A stretch of DNA of 56,251 nt from a bacterium (GCA_035370465.1 DAOOVW010000002.1:12939-69189), one strand, 5' to 3'. Positions 27,681 to 44,833 are shown, numbered from the stretch's first letter. Numbers and translations: made by a program. Notes: generated by a model not told the origin, from the letters alone.

Positions 27681-28877
27681 ATGGAAAGAAAGGGCATTGC
27701 TTTTCTGCAAAAAAAACATAATAAATTGTTTGGGAAAAATAAGTCATATCTTATAAAAGTGCCATTAAGAATATCCCCTCTTGGTGCTCATATTGACCAT
27801 CAATTAGGAATTGTTTCCGGGATGACTATTGATAAATATATATTTTTTTTATTTAGCAAAAACAATAGTAAGAATGTTAAAATTTATAGTGAAAATTATA
27901 ATGACTTTGTTGAATTTTCAATAAATAAAAATTTTAAAAAAGAAAATAGATGGTCCGATTATATAAAAGGTGCTGCTCATATTCTTAAAGAAAAATTTAG
28001 AATCAAAAACGGTATAAATGGAGTTGTTTATGGAGAAATATCAACAGGTGGTTTAAGTTCCTCCGCTGCAACCGGGATTTCTTATCTTCTTGCACTTGAA
28101 AAAGTTAATGAAATTGTAGTTGATAAAACAGAAAATATCTCATTGATGCAAAAAATAGAAAATGAATTTATCGGATTAAATAATGGAATTTTAGACCAAT
28201 CAGTTATACTATTAAATTCCTTACATCCGCAATCTCTAATTTTTATTGACTGCAAATCTGGAAAATATAGGAATGTAATTCCAAAGAAGAAATTTGACTT
28301 TCAAATACTTATTGTCCACTCAGGGGTTAATAGAACCCTTTTAAATACAAACTATAATGAAAGAGTTAGTGAGTGTGAAGAAGCAGGAAAAATACTTTTA
28401 AAATTTGCAGGTAAAAAAATAAAAAAAAATATAAAATTAAGGGATGTTAAAAAAGAATATTTTGAAAAATTTAAAGATAAATTACCCGAAAACTTAAAGA
28501 AAAGGGCAACACATTTTTATTCAGAAATTGAAAGAGTTAAAAAAGGAGTTAAATACTGGGAGAAAGGAGAAATAGAGAAATTTGGCAAATTAATGAAAAT
28601 GTCTGGTGAAAGTTCAATAAAAAATTATGAGTGTGGAATACCCGAAACAATCCAATTACATGACATTTTAAACTCTATTCCAGAAATTTATGGAGCAAGA
28701 TTTAGTGGTGCTGGATTTGGTGGGAGTTGTATAGCATTAACAAAAGGTAATATTGAAAGGGAACAAATAATTGTGAACATTGAAAAAAAATATATACCAA
28801 AATTTCCTGAGTTAAAAGATAAATACAAGATATTTTTTACTAATCACGGGAGAAAACCAGAAATATTTGAATTATAA
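27681..28877 (+). CDS. galK: Galactokinase-family GHMP sugar kinase
   Basis: Galactokinase signature PLRISPLGAHIDHQLG, GHMP motif GGLSSSAATG, and C-terminal SGAGFGGSCIAL. I prefer the ATG at 27681 over the listed GTG at 27672. Confidence 0.75.
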   Translation: MERKGIAFLQKKHNKLFGKNKSYLIKVPLRISPLGAHIDHQLGIVSGMTIDKYIFFLFSKNNSKNVKIYSENYNDFVEFSINKNFKKENRWSDYIKGAAHILKEKFRIKNGINGVVYGEISTGGLSSSAATGISYLLALEKVNEIVVDKTENISLMQKIENEFIGLNNGILDQSVILLNSLHPQSLIFIDCKSGKYRNVIPKKKFDFQILIVHSGVNRTLLNTNYNERVSECEEAGKILLKFAGKKIKKNIKLRDVKKEYFEKFKDKLPENLKKRATHFYSEIERVKKGVKYWEKGEIEKFGKLMKMSGESSIKNYECGIPETIQLHDILNSIPEIYGARFSGAGFGGSCIALTKGNIEREQIIVNIEKKYIPKFPELKDKYKIFFTNHGRKPEIFEL

Positions 28878-28896: not shown

Positions 28897-30180
28897 TTAA
28901 CTTTGTTTTACTTCTTTTTTGTATAATTGGTCAATATCAGGAACTTTACCATTTTTTAGTTTGTATAACACTTCCCCTGCTTTTTCAACTACAAGTATTC
29001 CTTCATTTTCCCTGTTTTTATAATTTTCTCTGTCCAGAGTATCAGGATTAATATATCCCAAATTTATTTTCCGGCATATTTCTTCACTTATTCCTGTTGC
29101 AAGAATTACTTCAATTCTCGGTTTTTCAATTCCATCTATAAAAGTCCCTATTCCTTTAACATGTGTTGAATGAGCAAGAATACAACCAGGATAATTTTTA
29201 AATTTCTCCCATTGTTTTAGAAAATAATCTCTTGTATGATAACCAACTTCTTCTAAATATTTTCCGTGAGTATATGACACAACATTTATATGAGGAGCAA
29301 AAATAATAAGTTTTCCTCCATCAGCAACAACTGGTTCAAGTTTATACATACATTTTCCTGCTGTCCATATATCATCATACATAGGTGGTGCAACTGAAAT
29401 TACCATATTAAATGGCATATCAACATATTTTATATTTATTTTTGAAGAAAGTTGTGCTGCTTTTTCCCAGTCATCTGTATCACCAGCAAAAACACCGTAA
29501 ATTAAGTTTTCATTTACTACATAGTTTATTAAATGAACTTTTTTATTTATAAATGAAGCTGCAATATTTATTACATCTCGGACAGGTGTTTTTATTACTC
29601 CATTTATTTTAGGATTTGTTATTAAAGCTCCTAACCAGTGGAATTTATGTAAAAATTCAGGACCGCAAATTCCTGGAAAAAAATACTTATAACCACCTGA
29701 AAAACCAACAACTTCATGGGGAAAAACAGGACCGGAAATAATTATTTCATCATATTGAAAGATTTTTCTATTTATTCTAACAGGAATATTTTCATTTAAA
29801 AGGGTGCTTATATATTCTCCCATCTGTTGTTTATTTATTATACCGATTTCTTCAAGTGCCTCTGAATTATTCCACTGGTGCTGGAAAATTTCTGTTTCTT
29901 CATTTCCTTTTATATCTAAAAATTCTCTTATTTTTTCATCAGACATTTCTGGATGTGTTCCAAGTGCAATCATAAAATCAATTTTTTTTACTTTCTTTTT
30001 TAGAATATCTAAAATTGAATGAAAAAAAAGAGCAGTTGGTCCTGACCTTGTTGTATCAGGAATTATCACAAGGACCTTTTTATTAGAAAAATCATTTTCT
30101 TTTGTTAAATAATTTTCCAAAATTTTTCTTATTTCCTCTTCACTAATTATTCTATTTACCTCTCCTTTACCTGTTCCCAT
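28897..30180 (-). CDS. LarA-like (nickel-pincer dependent lactate racemase family, DUF2088) protein
   Basis: VLVIIPDTTRSGP, ALGTHPEMS and PHEVVGFSGGYKYFFPGI match the LarA pattern (D.TR, G.H, H...GFSGG.K...PG). The 427-aa length is typical. Confidence 0.65.
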   Translation of the reverse strand: MGTGKGEVNRIISEEEIRKILENYLTKENDFSNKKVLVIIPDTTRSGPTALFFHSILDILKKKVKKIDFMIALGTHPEMSDEKIREFLDIKGNEETEIFQHQWNNSEALEEIGIINKQQMGEYISTLLNENIPVRINRKIFQYDEIIISGPVFPHEVVGFSGGYKYFFPGICGPEFLHKFHWLGALITNPKINGVIKTPVRDVINIAASFINKKVHLINYVVNENLIYGVFAGDTDDWEKAAQLSSKINIKYVDMPFNMVISVAPPMYDDIWTAGKCMYKLEPVVADGGKLIIFAPHINVVSYTHGKYLEEVGYHTRDYFLKQWEKFKNYPGCILAHSTHVKGIGTFIDGIEKPRIEVILATGISEEICRKINLGYINPDTLDRENYKNRENEGILVVEKAGEVLYKLKNGKVPDIDQLYKKEVKQS

Positions 30181-30265
30181 ATCTACCTCGTTTTTATTTA
30201 ATATGGTACTTCCAAAAATCTCGTCTTATTTGCAATGTTTTGTGGTTAATCTTTGGGCGGATATA

Positions 30266-30622
30266 AAAATCCCCCTCACTCCCGTTGTACTATCTGAAGG
30301 ACAATAACACACCAACTCTGCTTTGCTAATCATCCCCTCTTTTGTCGGGCTGTCAAAGGGGGAACATTTGTCTCCTTCCTTTATAAAAGGAAGGTGGGGA
30401 TGGATTTCCTGTAATTTCCTTAAATCCCCCTCTCTCCCCGTTGTGCTATCTGGAAAATCTCCCCTAACCCCTCTTTACGAAAGAGGGGTGTATTTTGGAA
30501 TAACGCACCAACTCTGCTTTTCTACCCTTTGCTTCTTTAGTCGGTTTGTTAAAGAGGAAATACACCTTCCCTTAAGAGAAGGAATGCTCGCCCGTAAGCT
30601 CCTCGCTTTTAGCTACGCATCC
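30266..30622 (+). repeat. Modular repeat, copy B (two tandem core units, no outer arms)
   Basis: Unit 1 spans 30266-30407 and unit 2 spans 30420-30622. Both show the box order CCCGTTGT(A/G)C..CACCAACTCTG..GTCGG..AAAG(G/A)GGAA..CCTTCC hairpin. Unit 2 carries an extra nested hairpin, CCCCTCTTT-ACGA-AAGAGGGG (30468-30488). The repeat ends 4 nt from the gnd stop codon. Confidence 0.85.
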
Positions 30623-30626
30623 TAAT

Positions 30627-32129
30627 TTATTTAGTTATTTCTTTTTCAGGTCTTCCTGGTAATAACCACTCAGTATGAAATTCCCTTATTTTTCCATTTT
30701 CTGTTTCTAATATCTCAGGACTTTCTTCTCCGCCAATTTTAAAATATCCATGTGCTCCAAAGTAATCTCTCTGTAAAGCAGTTACCTGACAGGCAAACAT
30801 AATTGGTGAAGTTAATTGTAAAATATAATCATAGGAATTTGCCAATCCTAATGCAGGAACTCCGACTTTATGAGAAATTTCAACCAACTTTCCAAGTTTC
30901 CATAAATTCTTTTTAATAAAATCAGAAAATTTACTGTGTGCAATCAAATTTAAAAGTTCAGGATTCTCTAAATATGCCTTTGTAATTTCATCAAGAAATT
31001 GTGCTCTTATAATGCATCCTGCTCTCCATATTTTTGCTATTTCTCCTAAATTTAAGTTGAATTTATAAAACTCAGATGCAGATTTAAGAAGTGCAAAACC
31101 CTGAGCATATGAAGAAATTTTACCTATATAAAGTGCATCATGAGCAATATCAATAATATCTTCCTTTTTCTCATTTAGTTCTTCTCTGATATTAAGAGGT
31201 AGAATTTTACTCATTTTCAATCTTAAATCTTTTTCCCCAGACATTTCTCTTGAAAACACAGCAGAAGATATTGTTGGAACAGGAACAAGTAATTCCAATG
31301 CACTTTGAACTGTCCATGTTCCAGTCCCTTTCATTCTTGTAATATCTGCCACAATATCAACAAGATATACTCCTTCGTTTCTTTTATCTTTTTCTTTCAA
31401 AAGGTCCGATGTAATTTCTATAAGATAAGATGATAATATATCATTTTTGTTATTCCACTTTTCCATAATTTCACCAATTTCTTCGCCTTTCATACATAAA
31501 GCATTTTTAAAAAACCAGCAAACTTCTCCAATAAGTTGCATATCTCCATATTCAATTCCATTATGTGTCATTTTTACAAAATGCCCTGCTCCACCAGGAC
31601 CAATAAAAGATACACATGGAGAACCATCATACGCTTTTGCTGAAATATCAGAAAACATTTTTTCAATAAGTTGATATGCTTCTTTTGAACCACCTGGCAT
31701 AATAGAAGGACCTTTTAAAGCCCCTTCCTCTCCACCAGAAACACCAGTTCCGATAAATAAAATTCCTTTTTCTGTTAAATATTCATATCTCCTGATAGTA
31801 TCTTTAAAATATGAATTTCCACCATCAATTATAATATCTCCCTTTTCAAGAAATGGAATAAGTTTTTCAATAAAATCATCAACTGGTTTTCCTTCTTTTA
31901 CCATCATCATTATTTTTTTAGGTTTTTTCAATAGTCCAACAAAATCCTTTATTTCATATGCTGGAATAATTTTTTTCCCTTTTGCCTGTGTTTCCACAAA
32001 ATTTTTTGTTTTCTCTCCTGTTCTATTATAAACAGCAACAGTATAACCCTTATCTTCAAAATTAAGGGCAAGATTTTTACCCATAACCTCCATTCCAATT
32101 ATTCCAATATCACATTTTTCCATTTTCAT
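30627..32129 (-). CDS. gnd: 6-phosphogluconate dehydrogenase (decarboxylating)
   Basis: IGIIGMEVMGKNLALN, GGNSYFKDT, GTGVSGGEEGALKGPSIMPGG and AGHFVKMTHNGIEYGDMQLI. Confidence 0.93.
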   Translation of the reverse strand: MKMEKCDIGIIGMEVMGKNLALNFEDKGYTVAVYNRTGEKTKNFVETQAKGKKIIPAYEIKDFVGLLKKPKKIMMMVKEGKPVDDFIEKLIPFLEKGDIIIDGGNSYFKDTIRRYEYLTEKGILFIGTGVSGGEEGALKGPSIMPGGSKEAYQLIEKMFSDISAKAYDGSPCVSFIGPGGAGHFVKMTHNGIEYGDMQLIGEVCWFFKNALCMKGEEIGEIMEKWNNKNDILSSYLIEITSDLLKEKDKRNEGVYLVDIVADITRMKGTGTWTVQSALELLVPVPTISSAVFSREMSGEKDLRLKMSKILPLNIREELNEKKEDIIDIAHDALYIGKISSYAQGFALLKSASEFYKFNLNLGEIAKIWRAGCIIRAQFLDEITKAYLENPELLNLIAHSKFSDFIKKNLWKLGKLVEISHKVGVPALGLANSYDYILQLTSPIMFACQVTALQRDYFGAHGYFKIGGEESPEILETENGKIREFHTEWLLPGRPEKEITK

Positions 32130-32140
32130 CTCCTTTTATT

Positions 32141-33208
32141 TTAATTTTTAATGGACATTTTACCTTCAAAATCAAATTTTTCAAGTTTATTAATTCCTGA
32201 TGGTCTTGGATTTATTTCAAGAAAAACAGGAATGACTTTCCCCTCTTTAAATTCAAGTAAGAAGTCAATTCCCATAAAATTCAGTAATTCCTTTAATTTA
32301 TAATTGAAAGCATAATAAACATTTAATACATCTTTTTTTATTAAATCAATATCATAACTTGTAAGAATTAATCTTTTGTATTCCTCTTTTTCCCTGTAAA
32401 AAACTTTTAAAAAAATATCTTTAAAACGAATAATTTTCCCCTCTTTTTCAACAGAAGTAATTGGTAAATTATCATTTGCTATTTCAACAAATCCATAGTC
32501 AGTCATAATTTCGTTATTAAATTTCCATAAAAGGACTCTAAAAACAATTTGTCTATATCCTTTTTCTTTTTCATTATAAAAAAAAACATTCCCTCTTTCT
32601 TCTTTTATAATTACTGACTGGCCCTGTAAAATTGTAAAAATTGTTTCAAGAACATTTTTTTTATTTTCAAAAAAATATTTACTTGTGAAAAAATATGTTT
32701 CTCTTCCTTCTGTTCCCCAATTCGGCTGTATATAAAAATTTTCAATTCTATTTTTAATAAGAAATTCTTTCAGGATTTTTTCAATTTCCCCTCTTTTTTC
32801 CCATTCCAGTAAAATACATTTAGGAACATTTATTCTATTTTTTTCTAATTTTTTTATAGTGTAATATTTATTATCTGCTTTCAGAGAAGAAGAAAAAGGA
32901 TTCAATTGAAATATATTATTTTTTTTTAAAAAAGCAGAAATTTTTTTATGAACTTTTATTTCTTCTTTAGCAATAAGACTTAAAACTAAAACTTTTTCAA
33001 ATTTAGGAGAGAATTTTAAAAGTACTTTTTCTACAATAAAATTATTGCTCATTTTTAAAATCTCTCTTTCAAAATTTTCTTTTGAATCCCATTTAATTCC
33101 ATAAAACTCAATATTTCCCTTTCCCTTAAGACATTCAATATTAAAAAATAAGATAATTTTCTTTATATATTCTTCATCAGATTGATAAATTATTCCTATC
33201 TTTTTCAC
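32141..33208 (-). CDS. ATP-grasp-like protein (function unknown)
   Basis: The C-terminal FMGIDFLLEFKEGKVIPVFLEINPRPSGI matches the E-x-N Mg/ATP-binding end motif of ATP-grasp enzymes. The central NFYIQPNWGTEGRETYFF is like the Gly-rich-loop strand. It lies 4 nt downstream of the giant ORF. Confidence 0.45.
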   Translation of the reverse strand: MKKIGIIYQSDEEYIKKIILFFNIECLKGKGNIEFYGIKWDSKENFEREILKMSNNFIVEKVLLKFSPKFEKVLVLSLIAKEEIKVHKKISAFLKKNNIFQLNPFSSSLKADNKYYTIKKLEKNRINVPKCILLEWEKRGEIEKILKEFLIKNRIENFYIQPNWGTEGRETYFFTSKYFFENKKNVLETIFTILQGQSVIIKEERGNVFFYNEKEKGYRQIVFRVLLWKFNNEIMTDYGFVEIANDNLPITSVEKEGKIIRFKDIFLKVFYREKEEYKRLILTSYDIDLIKKDVLNVYYAFNYKLKELLNFMGIDFLLEFKEGKVIPVFLEINPRPSGINKLEKFDFEGKMSIKN

Positions 33209-33212
33209 TTTC

Positions 33213-36200
33213 TTATTTTGACTCTAATCTTTCTTTATAAATTTTCGCTCTTTCTCCTAATGACTTAAATATTATAAAGACCCCCTCCCCTTTTCTTTCT
33301 GGCGGCAATTGGTCATTATGTGGTCTCCATAAACCTGCTCCTGGATTTGGTTCAATTTTATAAACAACAAGGGATGGTATTTCATTGCCTCTTTTGTCAT
33401 ATAATTTTCTTTTTTCTCCTTTTTCATTAAATAGAGGAATTGATAAAACCTTTTTATTTTTATCAACTCTTTTTATCTCTTTCATATTACTATCAAATAT
33501 TTTTATCTTAGTTGGATTACCTTTTTCATCATATAGAGGTATAAGTTTTTCTTCTTTTTCATCAAAAATATATTTTAAATTATCATCTTCATCTATAAGA
33601 AAAACAGGCATATAATCCCCCATTTCATAAGGAATATCATTTATTTTAAAACCGGTTAAATCAGAGAAAATTTCATCATACTTTACTTTTGACATAAATT
33701 CTGGATAAATTTTTAAATATTCATTTAAAACATATTTCCAATTCTTTTTTAAATATTTTCTTTGGGATTCCATACTTGAAAATGCTGCTTTTGTTATTTG
33801 TATCCTCATGTCGTTTCTATATTTTGGATTAATAATATCATCAGTATATTCAAAAAGTAGACCGCCCTGTCCAACATTGGCAATACCTTGAGTACTTATA
33901 ACAGTTATATGATGCGAAATTTTATAGTCACTTTTTTCAAAAACAAGAATCTGCCTGAAATATGAATACAATGGTGTCTGTGGTTCTCTATCAAGTAATA
34001 CAGGAACCCCAATTCTTGCAAATCTTTCAACAAGTTTTTCTAAAAATTCTTTTGAATATAATTGCCTTACTCTTGATTCAAGTACCTGCTGAATTACAAC
34101 ATTATCTGTTTTAGAAATTTCAAAAGTTAATTCTACCAATTTATCTATATTTTCTTCAATATATTTCCCATTTTCTTTTACTGGAAGTATAAGTGATTTT
34201 CTTCCTCCTGATTCTTTTTCTGGTTTTACAATCAATGCATCATATTTTCTTGCCAATTTGTATATTTTTTCTTTAATTTTATTCTTTGACTTACCTCCAT
34301 ACTTTTCAGTATCTTTTATATACCAGTTTTCCTGCTCAGGTGTTTTAACCCCAGAACCTTTTAACATTTTGGGAAGTTCACATTTAAGGTGAGTTGCTGC
34401 TTCCCATATTAATGGCTGGATTATTGGTATTCTGTAAGTATCTATTTCAGACCTTAATGGATGAGTAAAATGGAAAAAAATTCCATGAAGTGTAATTACC
34501 CCTTTAAATGTTCCAAAGACCAGTCCATTTTCATTTTCACCAAATTTTTTATATTTCTCTCTGAGTTTTTTTATGTCATTTTGGTTTGGATAGAACATAC
34601 CTTCTCTTATTGTAAGAACTTTTTTATCTTCTTTTAATTCAGGAATAGGAAATGAAGTTAAGAAAAGATTTATATTGGCATTTGTTGAAAGGATTGGTCC
34701 TTGTTGTAAAGCAACAGGAACCGTTGTATTGCCATAGGGATATATTATCCCAAGATTAACTCTTTCAGATACAGATAAGTCAGCAGGGTCAATCTGCATA
34801 ATTATTTCTGGGTATCCAAAACCCTCATATTTTAAAACAACACTATCTCTTAGACGAACATAATGAAACCAAAAATCCTCGTCTTTATTCTCCCCTCTTA
34901 TTCCAATCCCATAAATATTTTTATCAAAATTTCCAAGATATAAATCAGTATAATCAGAAGAAAATTTCTTCATAGATGTTTTTTCAGATATAAGAGACCT
35001 TAAATATGTATATAGATACCTATGATATTGACAGGCAAGTTGAAATTTCTTATCTCTTGGAATTTTTTCAAAAGTTGAGGACCTTTCTTTTGAATAATGG
35101 TAAGGGAGAGAATCAAAAATATGATTATTTACTGTTAAATCAAAAAATTTAGATATTTCAGTATTAAATTCCTCATCTGAATTGAGATTAATTGTTTTTT
35201 CAATTAAAAGTGAAATATCAATAAGTTCAAGTCCAGCACAGATTTCATTGTAAAATTCATAATTTCCTGTCTTTACATCAGCGGAACTGGCAAGATTTGT
35301 AACAAGAGATAAATAGTTTTTATCAGTTATCACATTTTCTGAAAATAAATTATTTATATCCTGTAATAAATTTTTCCCATTAAAAGATACAATCTCTTTA
35401 TTAAGAAATTCAAGATATAATTTTGAAATCCGCAGATATTTTCCGAAATCATAGGGAGAAATAGTATTTGTCCCTTTTCCTATAATTTCTTTCGCCTTTC
35501 CATATATAAGAGAAAGATTTTTAGGATAATTTTCTATTACCTTTTCTACATCAAGGAAACCTCTTTTCTTTTCTCTTATGCATTTTACTCTTTCAATTTC
35601 TTTTTTTCTTTCTTCCCACCTTGCAAGTCCCTCAACTTTTTCTTCAACTGCTTTTAGAGAACCAGCAAGTCCTGTACTTATCTCTCTATACTTATATTGT
35701 TTAGGTGGATGATAAATAGACCTTAAAAAGTTGTTAACAATAAAATCTATTTCTTTTTGTCCATAACTTTCTTTACCTGAAACACCAAATAATTTTTTTA
35801 ATTTTATTCTATATTTTTCTCTTAATTCTGAAATTTCTTCTTTTTCTAATTTCCCATTTATAATATAACTTCCTCCATAAATTATCCATTTCCCAAAATC
35901 AAATTCATTTAGTTTTATACCTTTTGAAATTTTTGCAAAAGTATCAGTTATATATCTATCTCTCAAATTCCATACGCCTAAATTTTTTGCATCTCTTTCC
36001 TCTCTTAAAACATCGTCAAATTTTCTTTCAATAAGAATATTCTTTTTTATTCTATTTAAAACCTCTCCTGCTTTTTCTTTGTTCTCATTTAATATAGCAG
36101 TTAAAAATTCCTCACTTAAACTTTTCTCATCATTTAATTGGTTTTTCCATTTTTCAATTGTTTCTTTTCCTATTCCAAGACAACCATAAACAACTTTTTC

Positions 36201-39200
36201 TTCAAGTGCAAAAAGTTCTTTTACTTTCCTTCTGCAGTTCGGATAATTAAAAGCAAATGTAGGTCTTCTTGCCCCAGAAGTTCCGTCTGCAAAAACCAAC
36301 CCACTATTTGGCCTTCCTTTTTTCATCAAATAAAGCATCTTTGGTAAATTATCAACTAATTCTAATAGTTCCGGGTCAGGTATCCCCAGGTCAATGAAAT
36401 CAATACCTTGAATTGCCTCTTCATATGAAGAAAAAGGTCCTCTTTTGTCAATAACAAGAAGATGGATTTTCCCTTCAAGGTCTTTTATTATTTTTTCTTT
36501 TTCTTTCTCTGTTCTATCCTTTATTCCTATCCACCTTTTTAAATTTCCTCCATATACAAGGCAATTTGTCCTTATAATATTTTCATCAATTCCAATATTT
36601 AATAAGTAATTCTCAACTTCATTTTTTATTTGTTCAAGTCCTGAATTAGGCACATGATTTAGAATATCTGAGCCAGTGCAACTGCCAACAATTCTAATAT
36701 CAGCAGGTGGAATAAAATCTTTGAACATCTCTTTAATTATTTCTCTTCCTTCCGGGTCAATATCAAGAAGTATATGATTATCTGCAACATTAGAATATAT
36801 TTCAAGTTTTCTGCTTCCTGCACTGAACCTCACATCAGAGACAGGTATCAATTTCCCATCTTTTTTCTCCCCTTCTTTATAATTTGCTGTCATAACGCCT
36901 ATCAATTCACTGTCATCAACTAAATATGGATTTTTCTTCCTTGCCTGATGTATAAGTTGATAAATAAGTTTAACTTTTCTAAAAGGACCTGTTCTATTTA
37001 TTTCTTCTAAACCCTGTGCTTTTTTGTTAACCCAGTAAGTAAATTTATATTCAAGTTCTTTTTCTTTATTTTCAATAAGCCCCATTTTCCCAAGTATCTT
37101 TGCAATTTGTGGTAATCTTGAAAGACAGATGGGCTTTCCAATTATTCCAAAATATTCAGGATATTTTTTGAAAAGATAAGAAGTTGCTTTTTCTTCCCAT
37201 TCTAATTCAGAAGTAATTTCTGCTCGCCAACCAAGAACTTCTCGCAAATCTTTTATTATATGTTCCTGAATTTTTTCTGGTATTCCAAATGAAGATAATA
37301 TCTGAGAAGATATTTCTCTATCAACACATGCTATAATTATTGCATAAAGAAGACTGAATTCCTTAGGAACACAAAAACCTCCATATGTTTCACCTGCTGG
37401 TAAGACCTTTCTATCACCTCTTGCATTCCATTGATTTCTGAAAAATTCAAAATCGCCCATTCCCAGTGTATCAAGATTTATACTGCCTGCTAATGAAAGA
37501 TAATAGACACCACCTCTTGAAAAGAAATTTTCCCCTACTTTTAAAAATTCAGTTACTCTTGTAGAAGGAACAACAGTTGGACCTGCAATATTATAAAGGC
37601 GATATAATTCTTTCCCAGAATTTGCAGAAATATCATCTATACCACCTACCCATTTAGGAATATCTCTTACTGAAAAAACTTCTTTTGCTCCAAGGTCCAC
37701 TCTGCTTGGAGTATAAAGTAAGTTATATCTTTTAAAAGGGCCTTCTGCTTCATATCTAAAAAGTGGATTTGAAAGTTCACTTATTAAATTTTCTTCAACA
37801 ATAACTTCTTTTTGAGCATTAATAGTTGAATATGTTGGATTGAGATAATTTTTAAGAAACTCTTTTGTTTCTTTTTCTAGATTGAAATTTCTAATCATAT
37901 CTTCTCTTGTTTTCTTTAAAATTTTCAGATTCTCTTCTTCCTTTATATCAATTAAATTTATATTTTCCAGACATTTTAAAACGCATTCTGGTTCTTTTAC
38001 TTTAAAATCTTTTCTATTTAAATTTTCACCCTCTTTTTGCAACAGAATTATTATTTTTGATACTTCTTTTCCTATTTCTGGATAAGAAAAAAGACATTTT
38101 AATATTCCCTGTTCTCCTTCTCCTAACTTGTAAATTTCCCCTTCAAGATTGTTTTCTTTAATTATTTTTTCACCTATTTTTATTATATTTTGTCTCCATA
38201 TTTCCATTTTTCCTTTTACTTTTTCTTCAAGTTTGTGTCTTCTTATAATATTGAATAAAAGCATACTTTCCTCAAGCCAGTTTTTTACATTAAGTTCGCT
38301 TTCACCCGGTCCAAGAGTAGTTAAAATATGAATAGAAGGAAGATTCCTTTTTGGATAATCTACAAGCGATAAATATTTCTCATGGAGTTCCAGAATACAA
38401 TGTTCTTCAAGGAATTTTTCAAGTTGATTTTTTAATGATTTAATGCCTTTATAATTTTTCAAAAATTCTTTTACCAGATTACCTTTTTCCACTTCATTTA
38501 TAGCAAGTGTTAATCCTTCAAATCTTAGCAGTTTCTCTCTTTCACATATTTCAGATATCTGCCTAATCATATTCTCATATGATTTTTCAATGAGTGCAGA
38601 AATATAGGCAATTTCCTTCTTTTTATTTCTTGTTCTTTCAATTAATTGTTTTTCATCCTTAAAATTTATCTTTAAAATTTTGGAGAGAATATTTCTTGCA
38701 AGAAAAACATTTTCTGTAAGCATAACCTCTTCTATATTTAATGCCCAGTTTTCAGCATTTGTTCTGTACATTTCCTCAAGAATATTTCTCTGAACCCATG
38801 CAGTGAACTTATAAGAACCATTTTCAGGTATTATTTGATATGTTGCATATGCAGGAAGTGCTTCTATCCAGTCATCACAAATTCTAAGCCAGTCCTTCAT
38901 ATCAGGTGTTACATAAATGTTTTCCCCCCCATTTGCAAGTAAATTTTCAATTTCAGGGTCCTCCCCAAAAAAAGGGTCAAGTAATTCATTTAAAAGTCCC
39001 ATATATATTGCATCTATTGGAAAAACCCTCTGGAAAAATATCATATAAATAGGTGTTCTTGATGGAAATTTGTTTAATTCATTTTCAAATTTTTTTATTT
39101 CAACTCTGATATTGTCAAAAACTTTTCTATCCTGCATCATAAATTCTGCATTCTCATCAAATTTCTGGACAAGTTGAAATTCATAATTTCTTAATGTATC

Positions 39201-39857
39201 TTTTAAGTTTTTCAATCCACATTTTATCTGTGCAATAGAGACATCATTTTCTCCTGTTAAATTATCAAGAAATTGTATATCACTTTCTATTGGTAAAAAA
39301 CTAATTTTTGACTTTGAAATTATTCTTCTTATTTTTTCTAAAAGGAGAGTTATTACATTTGAAGAGAGCAATTTTGAATTTGCTAAAAGTAAAGCATCAA
39401 TATAAAAAGCACGACTGAATCTTCCACATACAATTCTTCTTCCCGATTCTTTTCTATCTAAAGCAATTTTCTCACAACATTCTCTGTCTTGTTTTTCATC
39501 ATATGTTTCTCTTATTGCTTCATAAATCTGGCTTCTTAAATTTTCAAGGTCTTTTACTGTCTCTATAACATATTTAACTTTTTCTCTATTATAAGGCAAA
39601 CCAAAGTTTTTTCTTGACAAAAGTAGCGCACACAATTTTTTTCTCTTTATTACATCTTTTTCTTTTTCCCCTTCCTCAAGAAAATTTATATACCATTGCC
39701 CATTTTTTTCCTTACTGAATATTTTTATTATTTTATTCCTTTGAGATGGAGAAAATTTTTCATAAATTGAAATGTAAGATAAAAGAACTTCCTTTTTCCC
39801 TTCTGCCTTCAAATTTTTAATAAATTTTCCTATTTTCATTTTATATAAATTCTGCAC
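33213..39857 (-). CDS. Giant (2,214 aa) multidomain protein: unknown N-terminal region + UDP-glucose/GDP-mannose dehydrogenase-like module + unknown middle region + RimK/GshB-like ATP-grasp C-terminus
   Basis: The ORF is uninterrupted over 6.6 kb. Dehydrogenase-like motifs: GEGEQG (aa 579-584), TEFLKVGENFF, PAGETYGGFCVPKEF (Cys829) and VMTANYKEG..VSDVRFSAGSRKL. ATP-grasp motifs: ALIVKPEKESGGRKS (aa ~1874-1887), GIANVGQGG (aa ~1991-1999) and KIEPNPGAGLW (aa ~2167-2177). An alternative ATG at 39839 lies 1 nt after the upstream stop. Confidence 0.6.
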   Translation of the reverse strand: MQNLYKMKIGKFIKNLKAEGKKEVLLSYISIYEKFSPSQRNKIIKIFSKEKNGQWYINFLEEGEKEKDVIKRKKLCALLLSRKNFGLPYNREKVKYVIETVKDLENLRSQIYEAIRETYDEKQDRECCEKIALDRKESGRRIVCGRFSRAFYIDALLLANSKLLSSNVITLLLEKIRRIISKSKISFLPIESDIQFLDNLTGENDVSIAQIKCGLKNLKDTLRNYEFQLVQKFDENAEFMMQDRKVFDNIRVEIKKFENELNKFPSRTPIYMIFFQRVFPIDAIYMGLLNELLDPFFGEDPEIENLLANGGENIYVTPDMKDWLRICDDWIEALPAYATYQIIPENGSYKFTAWVQRNILEEMYRTNAENWALNIEEVMLTENVFLARNILSKILKINFKDEKQLIERTRNKKKEIAYISALIEKSYENMIRQISEICEREKLLRFEGLTLAINEVEKGNLVKEFLKNYKGIKSLKNQLEKFLEEHCILELHEKYLSLVDYPKRNLPSIHILTTLGPGESELNVKNWLEESMLLFNIIRRHKLEEKVKGKMEIWRQNIIKIGEKIIKENNLEGEIYKLGEGEQGILKCLFSYPEIGKEVSKIIILLQKEGENLNRKDFKVKEPECVLKCLENINLIDIKEEENLKILKKTREDMIRNFNLEKETKEFLKNYLNPTYSTINAQKEVIVEENLISELSNPLFRYEAEGPFKRYNLLYTPSRVDLGAKEVFSVRDIPKWVGGIDDISANSGKELYRLYNIAGPTVVPSTRVTEFLKVGENFFSRGGVYYLSLAGSINLDTLGMGDFEFFRNQWNARGDRKVLPAGETYGGFCVPKEFSLLYAIIIACVDREISSQILSSFGIPEKIQEHIIKDLREVLGWRAEITSELEWEEKATSYLFKKYPEYFGIIGKPICLSRLPQIAKILGKMGLIENKEKELEYKFTYWVNKKAQGLEEINRTGPFRKVKLIYQLIHQARKKNPYLVDDSELIGVMTANYKEGEKKDGKLIPVSDVRFSAGSRKLEIYSNVADNHILLDIDPEGREIIKEMFKDFIPPADIRIVGSCTGSDILNHVPNSGLEQIKNEVENYLLNIGIDENIIRTNCLVYGGNLKRWIGIKDRTEKEKEKIIKDLEGKIHLLVIDKRGPFSSYEEAIQGIDFIDLGIPDPELLELVDNLPKMLYLMKKGRPNSGLVFADGTSGARRPTFAFNYPNCRRKVKELFALEEKVVYGCLGIGKETIEKWKNQLNDEKSLSEEFLTAILNENKEKAGEVLNRIKKNILIERKFDDVLREERDAKNLGVWNLRDRYITDTFAKISKGIKLNEFDFGKWIIYGGSYIINGKLEKEEISELREKYRIKLKKLFGVSGKESYGQKEIDFIVNNFLRSIYHPPKQYKYREISTGLAGSLKAVEEKVEGLARWEERKKEIERVKCIREKKRGFLDVEKVIENYPKNLSLIYGKAKEIIGKGTNTISPYDFGKYLRISKLYLEFLNKEIVSFNGKNLLQDINNLFSENVITDKNYLSLVTNLASSADVKTGNYEFYNEICAGLELIDISLLIEKTINLNSDEEFNTEISKFFDLTVNNHIFDSLPYHYSKERSSTFEKIPRDKKFQLACQYHRYLYTYLRSLISEKTSMKKFSSDYTDLYLGNFDKNIYGIGIRGENKDEDFWFHYVRLRDSVVLKYEGFGYPEIIMQIDPADLSVSERVNLGIIYPYGNTTVPVALQQGPILSTNANINLFLTSFPIPELKEDKKVLTIREGMFYPNQNDIKKLREKYKKFGENENGLVFGTFKGVITLHGIFFHFTHPLRSEIDTYRIPIIQPLIWEAATHLKCELPKMLKGSGVKTPEQENWYIKDTEKYGGKSKNKIKEKIYKLARKYDALIVKPEKESGGRKSLILPVKENGKYIEENIDKLVELTFEISKTDNVVIQQVLESRVRQLYSKEFLEKLVERFARIGVPVLLDREPQTPLYSYFRQILVFEKSDYKISHHITVISTQGIANVGQGGLLFEYTDDIINPKYRNDMRIQITKAAFSSMESQRKYLKKNWKYVLNEYLKIYPEFMSKVKYDEIFSDLTGFKINDIPYEMGDYMPVFLIDEDDNLKYIFDEKEEKLIPLYDEKGNPTKIKIFDSNMKEIKRVDKNKKVLSIPLFNEKGEKRKLYDKRGNEIPSLVVYKIEPNPGAGLWRPHNDQLPPERKGEGVFIIFKSLGERAKIYKERLESK

Positions 39858-41337
39858 CGCTTGAAGAATTACAAATAAAAGATGATTCTGGTAAGTTTCT
39901 TTTATGGTAATACTTTTTATTTAGAATTTCAAGTGTTTTTTCTGCTTCTTTTTCTTCAACTAAAACTAAAACACATCCCCCAAGCCCTGCTCCTGTTAAT
40001 TTTGCTCCTTTTACTCCATTGATTTTTTTAGTAGTATCTACAATAAAATCTAATTCTGGAGTGCTACATCTATATCCACCTGGCTGGTTATAGATTTTTG
40101 CCTCTTCTTTTCCTTTTTTTAAATCAGATATTAACTTTAAAAGATACTTATCTGTTACTCTATAATCCCATTTTTCTATTTTATTATTGTCTAAATGTTT
40201 TACAACTCTATCACCGTCATGTGAAATAAACATTAACTTCCCAAATTTTTCTATTTCATTGTTTTTTAAAAAATATTCACATATCCTTGCTCTTTCACAT
40301 TCACTTATTCCATACATCAAAATATCTCTTAATCTATAACCTTTTTCAGGAGGTATATGCGTCTCAAATAGTACTCCAAGATTTTCTTCAGGCAATAATT
40401 TACAAATTTCTTCTCTTTTAGAAATTTCAGGAATTGAAAGCAAAATTTTATATACATTTTCCTCACTTTTGAGTATTTCTGGATTTACATCTCTTAAATG
40501 CACCAATTTGTTCTTTAATTCAGGAAAATTTTTCTTTATTAACTTAAAGCCTATTTCATAAGATGCTATTCTTTCATTAAATATATTTTTAGCATCTGTA
40601 GATTTTTTTGCTTCTATTAGTGAGTTACAACATATTACTTTATAATTTTCAGGAAAGGGTAGATATTTACTTGTAAAAGGGAAAAATCTTAAATGGACTA
40701 TCTGCCCCTTTTTACCAAAAATCATTGCTGCATGGTCTCCACTTCCACCTCTTGTACCTACATACCATTCTGCTTCTCCACACATTTCAACAAGTTTTTC
40801 TTTTTCAATATCTATATTATTAATTTTACAGGCACAAAGCATTGTTGCCACAACTAAAGCAGAAGATGAACTTAAACCTGCCCCGATAGGAATTTCACCA
40901 TAATAGAAAAGATTAAACCCTTTTAACGGAATTTCAGGAAATTTATTTTGAAGATATAAAATAGGTGCCTTTACATAATTTATCCAATCACCAGGAGTAA
41001 TTTTAATTTTCCTTATAAAATCAATCCAGTTAATCTTTTTGGCTGGTAATTCATTTTTTATATCAAATTCTCTTGGTGGATATTTTTCGCTTTCTAAATT
41101 ATAGGAAATTACTTTACTATCATTTCTCTTTCCTGCTACACAAAACAGTTCTTTGTCAATAGTTAAGTAATTTGTATAACCCCCTCTATGGTCAATATGC
41201 GTACCTAAAAGGTTAATTCTTGCAGGAACTTTCAGAATATCAATATCCTCATCATTAAACTTCTTGATGTATGACGCAATAAGTTTCTTTAAGCATTCAT
41301 TATTTTCAATCCCGTTTAACTTTTTTGATGCTATCAT
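39841..41337 (-). CDS. Galactokinase-family GHMP sugar kinase (long, 498 aa)
   Basis: PARINLLGTHIDHRGGY (galactokinase signature), GAGLSSSSALVVA (GHMP ATP motif) and TGAGLGGCVLVL. Its start directly abuts the SDR stop. Confidence 0.75.
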   Translation of the reverse strand: MIASKKLNGIENNECLKKLIASYIKKFNDEDIDILKVPARINLLGTHIDHRGGYTNYLTIDKELFCVAGKRNDSKVISYNLESEKYPPREFDIKNELPAKKINWIDFIRKIKITPGDWINYVKAPILYLQNKFPEIPLKGFNLFYYGEIPIGAGLSSSSALVVATMLCACKINNIDIEKEKLVEMCGEAEWYVGTRGGSGDHAAMIFGKKGQIVHLRFFPFTSKYLPFPENYKVICCNSLIEAKKSTDAKNIFNERIASYEIGFKLIKKNFPELKNKLVHLRDVNPEILKSEENVYKILLSIPEISKREEICKLLPEENLGVLFETHIPPEKGYRLRDILMYGISECERARICEYFLKNNEIEKFGKLMFISHDGDRVVKHLDNNKIEKWDYRVTDKYLLKLISDLKKGKEEAKIYNQPGGYRCSTPELDFIVDTTKKINGVKGAKLTGAGLGGCVLVLVEEKEAEKTLEILNKKYYHKRNLPESSFICNSSSGAEFI

Positions 41338-42162
41338 TTAGACACCTGAAAAAGCATTAAAACCACCATCTATTGGGACAACAATTCCTGTCACAAATTT
41401 TGATGCATTTGAAGATAGATATATACAAATACCTATCAGTTCATCAGGATTTCCCATCCTTCCCATTGGTGTATGTGAAATTATTGTTTTTCCTCTTGGT
41501 GAAAGGTTTCCATTTTCATCTAAAAGTAAATATCTATTCTGCTGAGTAAGAAAAAAACCAGGTGCAATAGCATTAACTCTTAGATTTTTGTTATATTCAA
41601 AAGCAAAATGTGCTGCAAGCCATTGTGTAAAATTACTTACTGCTGCTTTTGCAGCAGAATAACCAGGAATTTTTGTTAAAGGCCTGAAAGCATTCATTGA
41701 TGATATATTTATAATTGAACCTCCCTCTTTATTCTTTACCATTTCTTTCCCAAATACCTGTGCTGGTAAAATTGCTCCACCAAAAAGGTTAAGAATAAGA
41801 ACCTTTTCAAGAGCAGAAAGAGGTAGGTCAAAAAAGGATAAGTCATCTGATGTTGTTGCCTCTTTCATATTTCCACCTGCTGCATTAACAAGAACATCAA
41901 TCCTGCCATATTTATCAATTACTTTTTTACATGTTTTTTCAATTTCATCTTTCTTCAAAACATCAATATACATACTATCTACTTCAATCCCTTCTTTCTT
42001 GAATTCTTCTCTTTTTTCCTCAAATCCTTTAATATCACAAATAATAACCTTTGCTCCACTTTTTGAAAAACCTTTTGCAATTTCTCCACCAAGAATGCCA
42101 CATCCACCTGGTATTACAACAACTTTGTTTTCTACTGAAAATAATTTTTCTACAAATTTCAT
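41338..42162 (-). CDS. Short-chain dehydrogenase/reductase (SDR) family oxidoreductase
   Basis: VVVIPGGCGILGGEI (TGxxxGxG-like), NAAGG, and SSM...YSAAKAAV (catalytic Y-x-x-x-K). I prefer the ATG at 42162 (AAAAAGGAGAAG upstream) over the listed 42249 start. Confidence 0.85.
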   Translation of the reverse strand: MKFVEKLFSVENKVVVIPGGCGILGGEIAKGFSKSGAKVIICDIKGFEEKREEFKKEGIEVDSMYIDVLKKDEIEKTCKKVIDKYGRIDVLVNAAGGNMKEATTSDDLSFFDLPLSALEKVLILNLFGGAILPAQVFGKEMVKNKEGGSIINISSMNAFRPLTKIPGYSAAKAAVSNFTQWLAAHFAFEYNKNLRVNAIAPGFFLTQQNRYLLLDENGNLSPRGKTIISHTPMGRMGNPDELIGICIYLSSNASKFVTGIVVPIDGGFNAFSGV

Positions 42163-42176
42163 TTTCTTCTCCTTTT

Positions 42177-42206
42177 TATATAACTGCGGGGGTTGAACTT
42201 TTGTTT
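42177..42206. repeat. 30-bp perfect direct repeat, copy 1 (TATATAACTGCGGGGGTTGAACTTTTGTTT)
   Basis: Identical 30-mer to 45824..45853. It is GC-rich relative to the surroundings and lies just upstream of the SDR start. Confidence 0.9.
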
Positions 42207-42220
42207 TAATTACTAAAATT

Positions 42221-42249
42221 ATTTTAAACCCTATTTTTTTTGATATCAA
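42221..42249 (-). promoter_or_regulatory. Candidate sigma-70 promoter of the SDR-to-gnd operon
   Basis: On the minus strand: TTGATA (42249-42244), a 17-nt spacer, then TAAAAT (42226-42221). Such matches are common by chance in AT-rich DNA. Confidence 0.3.
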
Positions 42250-42378: not shown

Positions 42379-43230
42379 TTATTTTTTATGTATCTCAAAG
42401 GTAGTTCCTGTTGTTAAGTCAGATACAACGGTCCCCGGTAAAAATTCAATTTTTGTTTCTTCTTCTGAAATAGCTTTCCCTACTGAAATCTCCTCTACTT
42501 TCCAAATATTTTTTATCAATCCTTCAGGAGTCTTTCCTTCTGTTATCATCTTCATCGGAAACCAACAATCCTTACATACTTCTTTGTAGTCAAAGAATTC
42601 AACAGTATCTTCAATTTTGTTGTTCACGGTTCTTTCTATTAACACTGGACAGAATCCTATATCTTGTCCTAACCAAATGTTATAGCAAATGTCTCCTTCG
42701 CTTATTTTTACTAACCAACATTTATGTCCATCTATAACTTTTTGTTCTCTTGTAACTTTCCCTTTTTCTAAAGCATCATAAAGGAAATAAGAATTCTTCA
42801 AAAAAATTGGGCAATATGTCGTCTCTAATTTTATACCACTTAAGATCGGCCCCAATCCCATATCAATCTCACCGAATTTCTTATCACTTTGGGAAATGCT
42901 AATTTCCTTCCGAGTGCCAGAATTTCTTTCATACTTTCCTTTATATGTAAATTTCAATTCTTTTCCTTCAAAATGTTTGGTTTCCATAAAAAAACAATTT
43001 GGAGTTCGAACATACTGGGATATTATTTCCGAATTTTCTTTTTCGACATCTGTCAGAATTGTAATTTGACATTTCACTTTTAAAGCAGGATAACTCAAAT
43101 TTTCTTGATTTTTCAAAGATGCCTTTATAAATTCTATAGTTGGAATTTCTTCTGCTTGTAATATACTTCCTGTTAAACCACAAATTATTAAAAACATTAA
43201 AACCAATTTTATATTTAATTTTTTTAACAT
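42379..43230 (-). CDS. Secreted LolA/RseB-like (outer-membrane lipoprotein-sorting-like) protein, paralog 1
   Basis: N-terminal signal peptide (KLVLMFLIICGLTGSILQA). The C-terminal FLPGTVVSDLTTG resembles the C-terminal F.F.PP.GV.V.D of LolA. It is a paralog of the next two genes. Confidence 0.4.
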   Translation of the reverse strand: MLKKLNIKLVLMFLIICGLTGSILQAEEIPTIEFIKASLKNQENLSYPALKVKCQITILTDVEKENSEIISQYVRTPNCFFMETKHFEGKELKFTYKGKYERNSGTRKEISISQSDKKFGEIDMGLGPILSGIKLETTYCPIFLKNSYFLYDALEKGKVTREQKVIDGHKCWLVKISEGDICYNIWLGQDIGFCPVLIERTVNNKIEDTVEFFDYKEVCKDCWFPMKMITEGKTPEGLIKNIWKVEEISVGKAISEEETKIEFLPGTVVSDLTTGTTFEIHKK

Positions 43231-43250
43231 ATTTTTTTTCTCCTCGTATA

Positions 43251-44168
43251 TCAGTTCTTTTCAGGCACAGTAAAAGAAATCCCTGTCCTTTCATCATAAA
43301 CTTGTGTGCCAGGTGGAAAAGTTAAATTAAATTCTTCATCTTTTATCCCTTGGTTAACTTTTATATTAGAATATACCATTTTACCTTCTGCACTGATTTT
43401 TTTGGAAGAAGGATCATACCATTTTATAGAAACTCCTCCTGGGAACCATATATCTTTGTCTATACTAAATTTTTCAAAATTAATAGGACCTACACTTATT
43501 ATTAAATCTTCCTGTCTGTATATTTCAATTTTTTTAGGCAAAAAACCTTCTTCCACAGAGAACCATATTTTATATCCTAAATAGGAATAATCATCCTTGC
43601 CATATCCTTTGAACTCTTTAAATCCAAAACTTGGAACTTCTACTACAAAACATTTACTCCCAGCAAAATATTCAGAATTAGATAGTATTTTTAATTTTTC
43701 ATTTTGGAGAATTTCTTCCAAAGTAATACCCACAGGCCACAGATGAAATAGAATGGATGAAGGAACCCAAGTCGGTCTAATTTTTAGTTGAATATAATAA
43801 GGTGAATATCCCATAGTAACTGATGCAATTTTACCTTTCTCAAAGTTTATTATATAAGTGTTTTCAGGAGTGTAAATATAAATAATTTCATTTATATTTT
43901 TTGATTCATCCACTGCTTTAAGAAAAACTTTTTCTTTGCCATCTTTATAAAACCATTTTCCGCTTTTTATTTCCTTGCTATTTTTATAAGTTAGTTCAAA
44001 TTCTACCGATGCATCTTGTATAAGAGACAGGTTATACCTAATTCCTTGTAAAACAAATTCTAATTCATCTTTTGGCTCACAAAATACAAAGTTAGTTTTG
44101 GTAATACAAGCATTTTGTAATACAAATACCAATATACTCAGAAAAATAATTTTTTTTATTTTGTCCAT
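43251..44168 (-). CDS. Secreted LolA/RseB-like protein, paralog 2
   Basis: Signal peptide MDKIKKIIFLSILVFVLQNAC and C-terminal FNLTFPPGTQVYDERTG. I prefer the ATG at 44168 (GGAGGG upstream) over the listed TTG at 44201, which lies inside the repeat arm. Confidence 0.4.
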   Translation of the reverse strand: MDKIKKIIFLSILVFVLQNACITKTNFVFCEPKDELEFVLQGIRYNLSLIQDASVEFELTYKNSKEIKSGKWFYKDGKEKVFLKAVDESKNINEIIYIYTPENTYIINFEKGKIASVTMGYSPYYIQLKIRPTWVPSSILFHLWPVGITLEEILQNEKLKILSNSEYFAGSKCFVVEVPSFGFKEFKGYGKDDYSYLGYKIWFSVEEGFLPKKIEIYRQEDLIISVGPINFEKFSIDKDIWFPGGVSIKWYDPSSKKISAEGKMVYSNIKVNQGIKDEEFNLTFPPGTQVYDERTGISFTVPEKN

Positions 44169-44195
44169 TTTCCCTCCTATGTTAAAAGAGGGTAC

Positions 44196-44598: not shown

Positions 44599-44793
44599 TG
44601 GGTCACAACCATAACATTTACTTTTAAAAAGATGTCCCGGACAACTAAAGTAATTATTTATATGATACCATTCTGTGAATCCTTCCAAAAATGTTTTCAC
44701 TACAGTATTATATACCCCTTCTGGATATTTTTTTAAATACTCTTCCCATATTTTCTTTGCTTGTTCTTGACTTTTGTTTTCTTTATACATCAT
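44581..44793 (-). CDS. Small hypothetical protein (70 aa); doubtful
   Basis: ORF only, with no recognisable family. Its last five codons and stop (GGT AGT GTC AAA AAA TAG) are supplied by the L arm of repeat copy C. Confidence 0.25.
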   Translation of the reverse strand: MMYKENKSQEQAKKIWEEYLKKYPEGVYNTVVKTFLEGFTEWYHINNYFSCPGHLFKSKCYGCDPGSVKK

Positions 44794-44833
44794 CCATAAA
44801 AAATAACAATTTTCTCATTTGTTCCCTTTTATA

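Follow-up and report, generated by a model that had tools for sequence, protein, structure and literature searches.

The stretch of bacterial DNA GCA_035370465.1 DAOOVW010000002.1:12939-69189 (56,251 nucleotides, G+C content about 29%; hereafter the window) carries five open reading frames (ORFs) in a row on its minus strand, from 30627 to 42249. They encode a short-chain dehydrogenase/reductase (SDR), a GHMP kinase, a giant protein of about 2,200 residues, an ATP-grasp protein and the 6-phosphogluconate dehydrogenase gnd. Coordinates are those of the whole window unless another locus is named. The conserved core of this cluster is the kinase, the giant and the ATP-grasp partner (together, the trio); the five-gene arrangement is lineage-specific. 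Our reading, to which we give a probability of roughly 55%, is that the five genes are co-transcribed without forming one indivisible pathway, and that the three-component core works by a sugar-acid mechanism. The trio is an undescribed enzyme system assembled from known folds; no published description of the giant family or of the trio was found in a literature search of limited coverage.

Loci encoding the giant were collected using one genome per species, which gave 80 loci, and the flanking ORFs were clustered. In bacteria they are found in Omnitrophota, Ratteibacteria, Aminicenantes, Aerophobetes, Latescibacterota, Armatimonadota, Sumerlaeota, Planctomycetota, Elusimicrobia, Spirochaetales and Gemmatimonadota. 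They also occur in methanotrophs of the Methylococcaceae, including the cultured Methylovulum miyakonense HT12, Methyloglobulus morosus KoM1 and Methylotetracoccus oryzae C50C1; archaeal loci come from Bathyarchaeota and Thermoprotei. The nearest relatives of the giant, at about 60% identity, belong to Omnitrophota and Ratteibacteria, a group that is also the probable origin of the window. The ATP-grasp partner lies directly downstream on the same strand in 53 of the 61 loci whose sequence continues for 1.8 kb or more past the giant, which strongly upholds the earlier proposal that the giant and the 355-residue ATP-grasp protein belong together. A GHMP kinase is encoded within 8 kb of the giant in 27 of the 44 loci with adequate flanks. 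The linked kinases form three subfamilies: galactokinase/GalNAc-kinase-like (19 loci), L-fucokinase-like and heptose-1-kinase-like. For all three, the nearest solved relatives are anomeric sugar kinases.

The SDR and gnd are distributed differently. An SDR homologue (69-73% identity) is found directly upstream of the kinase only in four Omnitrophota loci (L004, L006, L007 and L013). L008 and L014 are the sole loci in which gnd directly follows the partner, and in L007 it is 8 kb away. All five genes in the window's order were found in none of the loci; the kinase-giant-partner arrangement is conserved. The original prediction had treated the five genes as one pathway, and it fails on this co-occurrence in related genomes. 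Judged by distribution, the SDR appears to be a lineage-specific accessory and gnd a sub-lineage-specific add-on.

Sugar and sugar-acid genes recur near the trio in various lineages. They include mannonate-type SDR, KduI/IolB, LarA-like, gnd and 6-phosphogluconolactonase-like genes, and also phosphoglucomutase/phosphomannomutase (PGM/PMM), Gfo/Idh/MocA oxidoreductases and xylose-isomerase-like TIM barrels. Radical-SAM genes accompany the trio in six loci (L004, L006, L007 and L013, at about 6643-7668; L015, 14292-16124; L030, 18804-20603). In the four Omnitrophota relatives the radical-SAM gene heads the operon and has a SPASM domain; the window has no such gene beside the operon. In a distant clade of Gemmatimonadota and Latescibacterota (L047-L082), genes for a conserved PAS histidine kinase, a sigma-54-type response regulator and an HDOD protein lie upstream of the giant, and in Methylovulum (L043) a MASE1 membrane-sensor gene (8468-9487 of that locus) stands directly before it. 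These arrangements suggest that expression of the giant is signal-controlled in these lineages.

Fusion proteins provide a second line of evidence for the core. At least five independent representative proteins (P0058, P0060, P0083, P0091 and P0108; 3,738-4,734 residues) consist of the giant with a C-terminal GHMP kinase domain. In P0058, P0060 and P0108 an ATP-grasp match lies between the two, an order often seen in the separate genes as well. Two dictyostelid amoebae are represented: P0060 comes from Synstelium polycarpum, and another homologue of the giant, P0105 (KAF2076817.1; 3,985 residues), from Polysphondylium violaceum. No SDR or gnd domain was present in the scanned fusions, and no pyrophosphorylase domain was detected in them or in the giant. 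Since kinase, giant and partner are fused in single polypeptides, there is strong evidence that they act together. The ATP-grasp partner, the recurring anomeric kinase and the fusions, three of five with the ATP-grasp in between, define a self-contained enzyme system. A fusion gene for a giant-ATP-grasp-kinase protein of 3,848 residues was seen in a 165-kb JGI metagenome contig (L084). It stands in a run of long ORFs on the same strand (1,148, 1,752, 2,117 and 3,083 residues, the last with SIS and PGM/PMM domains), together with a papain-like peptidase gene.

The giant ORF (33213..39857, minus strand) is 2,214 residues long if translated from GTG 39857, from which residues are numbered here, and 2,208 if translated from ATG 39839 (33213..39839). 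The closest homologues begin at the position of M7 in the alignment; the start is therefore likely to be ATG 39839. A set of 5.8 billion proteins contains 61 full-length homologues with 42-67% identity, all unnamed or annotated as hypothetical, and only 116 representatives were found among 1.84 billion protein clusters. The whole protein matches no Pfam family, and five separate segments searched at E-values up to 10 gave noise only. AlphaFold2 models of the two halves, built on 54-sequence alignments, have pLDDT values of 89 and 88.8. Invariance is counted below in the 54-sequence alignment, in which identities go down to 20%.

Residues 1-500 (38358..39857, minus strand) form an alpha/beta plus helical domain that is confidently folded in the model. 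Its invariant positions are rich in Arg and include R146, R149, Q276, R277 and N290. This domain has no sequence-profile match in the PDB, no significant Foldseek match in the PDB or in the viral BFVD, and no Pfam match at E=10.

Residues 505-1240, approximately, form a divergent module resembling nucleoside diphosphate (NDP)-sugar 6-dehydrogenases (36138..38345, minus strand). Profile searches against the PDB match 3g79 at 3e-08 and 4r16 at 1.7e-06, over residues 700-840 or so. In Foldseek searches of the PDB, the N-terminal half of the giant matches only UDP-glucose dehydrogenase (UGDH), UDP-ManNAc dehydrogenase and GDP-mannose dehydrogenase, with probabilities of 0.98-1.0 and TM-scores of just 0.2-0.46. 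The module has the Cys motif (GGxCxxKD) and the Lys/Asn helix of UGDH. The equivalents of the catalytic residues are invariant in 54 of 54 sequences: K773 and N777 in 'EFLKVGEN', and C829 (codon 37371-37373) and K832 in 'GGFCVPKE'. No match to Pfam PF03721 was found in the giant; some distant homologues reach PF00984 (P0059, 45 bits). Against the curated UGDH family TIGR03026 the module scores 24.3 bits, for a cut-off of 189.8.

A helical connector (residues 1241-1680, approximately; 34818..36137, minus strand) follows in the secondary structure of the AlphaFold2 model; it matches no family in Pfam and no fold in Foldseek. The C-terminal part, about residues 1681-2214 (33216..34817, minus strand), is an ATP-grasp module. 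Foldseek matches of the C-terminal half include D-Ala-D-Ala ligase (6dgi, at 2.2e-05), DcsG, GshB, MdnC, synapsin and LysX, at a probability of 1.0; the Pfam sequence score is below threshold (E-value 0.09). All 54 sequences have K1878, R1886, Q1923, N1994, E2169 and N2171. Of these, K1878 (in 'IVKPEKESGGR') is the ATP-binding Lys and E2169-x-N2171 binds Mg; both the fold and the residues are those of an ATP-grasp enzyme. Five to six (F/Y)DxxGxxI beta-hairpin repeats form an insertion of about 70 residues within this module (about residues 2095-2165; 33363-33575). They recall YD repeats and are kept in the family consensus.

The ATP-grasp partner (32141..33208, minus strand; 355 residues, GTG start) scores 27 bits with Pfam ATP-grasp_3, above the cut-off of 23.2 (E-value 5e-06), and has invariant Mg residues, D315 and N333; it is a member of the ATP-grasp family. 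Profile searches of the PDB match D-Ala-D-Ala ligase, RimK and LysX, the best at 9e-05. The partner is detectably related to the giant's own ATP-grasp module (hhalign probability 89.7%). The window encodes a short form, most homologues having 470-540 residues. The family is small, and several of its members are encoded on contigs of the same size as giant-bearing contigs.

The kinase (39841..41337, minus strand; 498 residues from ATG 41337) matches Pfam GHMP_kinases_N, GHMP_kinases_C and GalKase_gal_bdg, and so belongs to the GHMP superfamily. Its best PDB match is human GalNAc kinase (2a2c, 4e-32), and with the galactokinase equivalog TIGR00131 it scores 172 bits, under the cut-off of 226.65. 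By these scores it is a galactokinase/GalNAc-kinase-like GHMP kinase and not a galactokinase equivalog. Its sugar motif reads GTHIDH; the canonical motif is GEHxDY, and the Glu is absent. Of 19 giant-linked kinases, 18 have T, V, R or G at this position and the remaining one (L011) is aligned ambiguously there; the archaeal giant-linked kinases have Arg. Because the motif Glu has been lost, the substrate is probably not plain galactose and may be anionic. A parallel exchange of this residue, Glu to Ala, is said to occur in plant galacturonokinase. With these searches, the domains named in the original prediction (SDR, GHMP kinase, UDP-sugar-dehydrogenase-like module, two ATP-grasps and gnd) agree with the results of family and fold comparison.

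The gene structure of the cluster is compact. The likely start of the SDR ORF (41338..42162, minus strand) is ATG 42162, with AAGGAG 7 nt before it; the longest ORF extends to TTG 42249. Its stop codon (TAA, 41340-41338) directly abuts the kinase ATG 41337, with 0 nt between them. The kinase stop (TAA, 39843-39841) overlaps the giant ORF by 17 nt if the latter starts at GTG 39857, and is separated by 1 nt from the alternative ATG 39839. Four nucleotides lie between the giant stop (TAA, 33215-33213) and the partner GTG 33208, and 11 nt, containing AAGGAG, between the partner TAA and gnd ATG 32129. gnd (30627..32129, minus strand) has an alternative ATG at 32123, 17 nt past the partner stop; its spacing from AAGGAG is better than that of ATG 32129, and it is the likely start. 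The description of five minus-strand genes with almost no spacers is thus accurate at each junction (0, 1 or a 17-nt overlap, 4 and 11 nt). This tight packing fits an operon yet is unremarkable, because short spacers are ordinary in the window: of 36 same-strand junctions, 18 measure no more than 20 nt, and the median is 21.5 nt.

We infer that the five genes are most likely co-transcribed. Going upstream on the minus strand, the first spacer of any size is the 216-nt gap 5' of the SDR ATG, and just upstream of the SDR start lies the best promoter-like site on that strand (TTGATA-17-TAAAAT, 42221..42249), a weak candidate. A terminator-like hairpin with a T-rich tail (CCTTCTCTTAAGGGAAGG, 30565..30582, minus strand), 45 nt past the gnd stop, is the probable 3' end of the unit. 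The consensus scan found no terminator-like site in the gene junctions of the operon. Taken as a whole, the consensus scans gave no enrichment over shuffled sequences for promoters (72 sites, 76 expected) or terminators (9 sites, 6.5 expected), and such scans are of little use in a sequence of 29% G+C. No structured RNA or tRNA was found in the window.

The genes at the two ends of the cluster have better known relatives. The SDR (274 residues) scores 343.6 bits with NCBIfam PRK08277 (cut-off 281), a subfamily of the D-mannonate oxidoreductase type; it also matches Pfam adh_short_C2 at 1.8e-40 and PDB 4wuv at 3.6e-62. gnd encodes a decarboxylating 6-phosphogluconate dehydrogenase, matching TIGR00873 over its full length with 590.8 bits (cut-off 426.7) and NF006765 with 594 bits (cut-off 413). 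Downstream of gnd, after 446 nt, lies a LarA-like gene of the nickel-pincer hexonate-epimerase type (28897..30180, minus strand). It matches Pfam Lar_N at 4e-24, and its best NCBIfam model is NF052594 ('hexonate epimerase') with 181 bits, under the cut-off of 500. This gene is probably a separate transcription unit and may be functionally tied to the SDR and gnd. The LarA-like gene is shared only with L014, where the order is KduI-kinase-giant-partner-gnd-PFK-HAD-LarA; the KduI/IolB-family gene of that locus stands directly upstream of the kinase. In the window, a KduI/IolB-family isomerase is encoded 3.7 kb upstream of the operon (45876-46646, minus strand). Viewed by themselves, KduI and the SDR, LarA-like and gnd genes resemble a set for hexuronate/hexonate catabolism; the window showed no uronate isomerase, mannonate dehydratase or gluconokinase. 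Convergent with the LarA-like gene lies a gene for a second galactokinase-like GHMP kinase (27672-28877, plus strand), which has the canonical length at 401 residues. Its motif is GAHIDH, in which the canonical Glu is likewise absent.

From the domains, their invariant residues and their neighbours we infer a substrate, a series of steps and a product for the trio. The kinase would phosphorylate the anomeric hydroxyl of a hexose or hexuronate other than plain galactose, giving a sugar 1-phosphate. The giant would then bind this sugar 1-phosphate, or a nucleotide derivative of it, in the NDP-sugar-dehydrogenase-like pocket, where the invariant Cys829, Lys773 and Asn777 could act on the C6 end. 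ATP-grasp enzymes activate carboxylates as acyl phosphates; the giant's ATP-grasp module and the partner may do so here with ATP, and the acyl phosphate would be joined to a nucleophile, either an amine or a Cys of the enzyme itself. The simplest scheme would be activation of a uronate-type carboxylate bound in the pocket and its joining to an amine, as in the uronamide idea of the original prediction. Amidation of uronate carboxylates is an established type of ATP-grasp reaction, and the glucuronamide ligase of the Campylobacter capsule is a chemical analogue. In this Omnitrophota-like lineage, the SDR, gnd, LarA-like and KduI genes would tie the trio into the central metabolism of sugar acids and pentose phosphates. 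The chemistry suggested earlier (activation, oxidation and ligation) is a reasonable reading that fits the domains, except for the oxidation step, which is doubtful.

Several observations weigh against this reading. In human UGDH, E161, the Glu of the PEF/PER motif, activates water for thioester hydrolysis; the corresponding Glu of NPEF/PER is replaced by S718 in 54 of 54 sequences of the giant. The six-stranded Rossmann NAD domain is also unrecognisable, and the first loop reads GPGE(S/T)E (in 'TTLGPGE(S/T)E') rather than GxGxxG. The model has a strand at 508-511, then only helices (519-700, about 190 residues) until a strand at 712-715, which precedes 'PSRVDLG'; the all-helical stretch occupies the place of Rossmann strands 2-5. 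Because a recognisable NAD fold and the hydrolytic Glu are absent, a classical four-electron UGDH oxidation is doubtful. Lacking three defining features, among which we count a TIGR03026 score above the cut-off, the giant is partly UGDH-like and is not a member of the UGDH family. Its N-terminal domain of 500 residues stays outside the proposed mechanism and is unexplained by it. The partner has Gln before Pro162, where the Lys of the ATP-grasp 'KP' is usual. No GHMP kinase lies within 8 kb in 17 of the 44 loci with adequate flanks. Since no nucleotidyltransferase is consistently linked to the trio in the collected loci, there is no support for an NDP-sugar intermediate. In some loci of Methylococcaceae and Gemmatimonadota, the surrounding genes are for signalling and not for sugar acids. 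Finally, the co-transcription is read from sequence, and internal promoters may exist within the 6.6-kb giant gene.

A more specific version of the mechanism can be put forward tentatively. The trio may be an unrecognised class of megaenzyme in which an ATP-grasp acyl phosphate is passed to the Cys of a dehydrogenase-derived module without NAD domain and hydrolytic Glu, for thiol-templated chemistry on sugar acids, be it ligation, reduction or the conservation of energy. The missing NAD domain and hydrolytic Glu leave room for capture of the acyl phosphate by Cys829. As part of this tentative idea, the trio would be old and mobile enough to have reached bacterial phyla, archaea and dictyostelid amoebae. 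Doubtful, and still to be taken seriously, is the possibility that the operon is a mosaic, in which the SDR, gnd, LarA-like and KduI genes form an independent route from hexuronate through gluconate to pentose phosphates and the trio simply stands between them without a metabolic link. The SDR would convert fructuronate to mannonate, the LarA-like enzyme would yield gluconate, and gnd would convert 6-phosphogluconate to ribulose 5-phosphate. This would agree with the SDR score above the D-mannonate oxidoreductase cut-off, the 'hexonate epimerase' model as best match of the LarA-like gene, KduI and the second galactokinase-like gene nearby, the gene order of L014, and the presence of the trio in many genomes that have no SDR, gnd, LarA-like or KduI gene. 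However, junctions of 0-11 nt imply that translation is coupled between SDR and kinase and between partner and gnd, and the LarA-like score is far under its cut-off. Sugar enzymes of other families (PGM/PMM, 6-phosphogluconolactonase-like, Gfo/Idh/MocA and TIM-barrel isomerase) also stand beside the trio in unrelated phyla, which points to some metabolic link. We consider it unlikely that all five genes are a single dedicated pathway, with kinase, SDR, oxidation, two ligations and gnd all integral, that makes a uronamide, a sugar-acid conjugate or a compatible solute. The genes share a strand and are tightly packed, the SDR is kept beside the kinase in four relatives, and gnd follows the partner in L008 and L014; but the SDR is found near the trio nowhere beyond these four close relatives, gnd is adjacent in two loci, and the scanned fusions combine giant, ATP-grasp and kinase without SDR or gnd. 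In addition, the operon of the SDR-keeping relatives is headed by the radical-SAM/SPASM gene and has no gnd.

Two further explanations have still less in their favour. A role in redox or energy coupling is very unlikely: the ATP-grasp would form an acyl phosphate on a uronate 1-phosphate, which would pass to Cys829 as a thioester and be reduced to a hexose 1-phosphate, or the reverse reaction would couple the oxidation of a sugar to the making of ATP, with the product entering PGM, 6-phosphogluconolactonase and gnd. By analogy, this would parallel the pairing of acyl phosphates with Cys reductases in ProB/ProA, Ask/Asd and GAPDH/PGK. The invariant Cys, the Ser in place of the thioester-hydrolysing Glu in 54 of 54 sequences, and the ATP-grasp fused in cis would suit such a scheme, as would a kinase motif without its acidic residue (Arg in archaeal loci) and the PGM/PMM, 6-phosphogluconolactonase-like and gnd genes that are neighbours in three different lineages. 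The module, however, has no credible NAD(P)-binding fold, the second ATP-grasp is left without a role, no genes of uronate catabolism appear around the trio in methanotrophs and Gemmatimonadota, and the scheme is conjectural throughout. It is most improbable that the ATP-grasps act on a macromolecule or as kinases (RimK/LysX/MdnC-type ligation, polymer synthesis or phosphorylation of the inositol-phosphate type), with the dehydrogenase-like module as a mere sensor of sugar phosphates or nucleotides. Foldseek does match MdnC, LysX and synapsin as well as, weakly, the inositol-pyrophosphate kinase Asp1; six loci have, beside the trio, radical-SAM/SPASM genes of the sort typical of peptide maturation; the module's Rossmann part is degenerate; and IolB/KduI, Gfo/Idh/MocA and TIM-barrel neighbours are also typical of inositol metabolism. 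Set against this are the invariance of Cys, Lys and Asn, which favours catalysis over mere binding, the nature of the conserved third partner, an anomeric sugar kinase, and the fact that no conserved gene for a small precursor peptide or carrier protein was seen. Anti-phage defence was rejected as a role, PADLOC giving no match for giant, partner or kinase.

Several other features were observed around the operon. The 446-nt spacer between gnd and the LarA-like gene (30181-30626) is G+C-rich for the genome and contains a pair of tandemly repeated units, about 155-196 nt in size (30267-30364 and 30422-30560), with several hairpins. It matches no Rfam family, the only hit being wcaG at E=0.88, and there are no further copies in the window. 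It could be a miniature mobile element, a leader RNA or a small RNA. Three or four ORFs lie immediately upstream of the operon (42379-45788, minus strand), one of them LolA-like; two have hydrophobic N-termini that resemble signal peptides by eye, and no Pfam family. Further away (15861-24417, plus strand) are two paralogous GHL6/GH42M glycosidase-like genes and two M55 D-aminopeptidase genes. This block, which is interrupted by an IS110-family transposase gene (19105-20142) and followed by an amidohydrolase and a DegT-type aminotransferase, looks like a duplicated block for sugar or amino-sugar utilisation.

The preferred reading, a conserved trio with sugar-acid chemistry, has several implications. 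The giant is rare yet phylogenetically very widespread, being found in many bacterial phyla, archaea and dictyostelids and conserved over its full 2,200 residues with 42-67% identity between phyla. The product of the trio could be a new sugar-acid conjugate, or the system could be a new way of processing uronates. Its occurrence in cultured methanotrophs and in dictyostelids makes it open to genetics and biochemistry. For annotation, caution is required: the five-gene cluster should not be taken as one pathway.

The individual parts of the locus can be compared with known systems. The UGDH family (3g79, 4r16 and 2q3e) shares with the giant the central helical domain, the GGxC(V/L)xK(D/E) motif and the AE..K..EN helix. 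The giant module differs from it in being embedded in a protein of 2,200 residues, in having helices in place of strands 2-5, and in carrying Ser for the hydrolytic Glu. ATP-grasp carboxylate-amine ligases such as D-Ala-D-Ala ligase, glutathione synthetase, RimK/LysX and DcsG have the same fold and Mg/ATP residues as the C-terminus of the giant and the partner. Sequence similarity to these ligases is marginal, the giant has the hairpin-repeat insertion and the partner has Gln for the 'KP' Lys. Hexuronate and hexonate catabolism, in which UxuB-type mannonate oxidoreductase, KduI/KduD and LarA-family gluconate/mannonate epimerases lead to gnd, uses the same families as the SDR, KduI, LarA-like and gnd genes found here; unlike this locus, these pathways include no GHMP kinase, UGDH-like megaenzyme or ATP-grasp ligases.

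The closest parallels to the architecture of the trio are salvage enzymes in which a GHMP anomeric kinase is joined to the next enzyme of its pathway. One is the zebrafish glucuronokinase/UDP-GlcA pyrophosphorylase (PMC3938481). Another is L-fucokinase/GDP-fucose pyrophosphorylase (PDB 5yys). In both, the kinase is joined to a consumer of the sugar 1-phosphate; the trio kinase is likewise fused or linked in an operon. Whereas these salvage fusions pair the kinase with a pyrophosphorylase, its counterpart in the trio is the giant with the ATP-grasp, with no recognisable nucleotidyltransferase. In the distant clade the likeness extends to the kinase itself, which is fucokinase-like.

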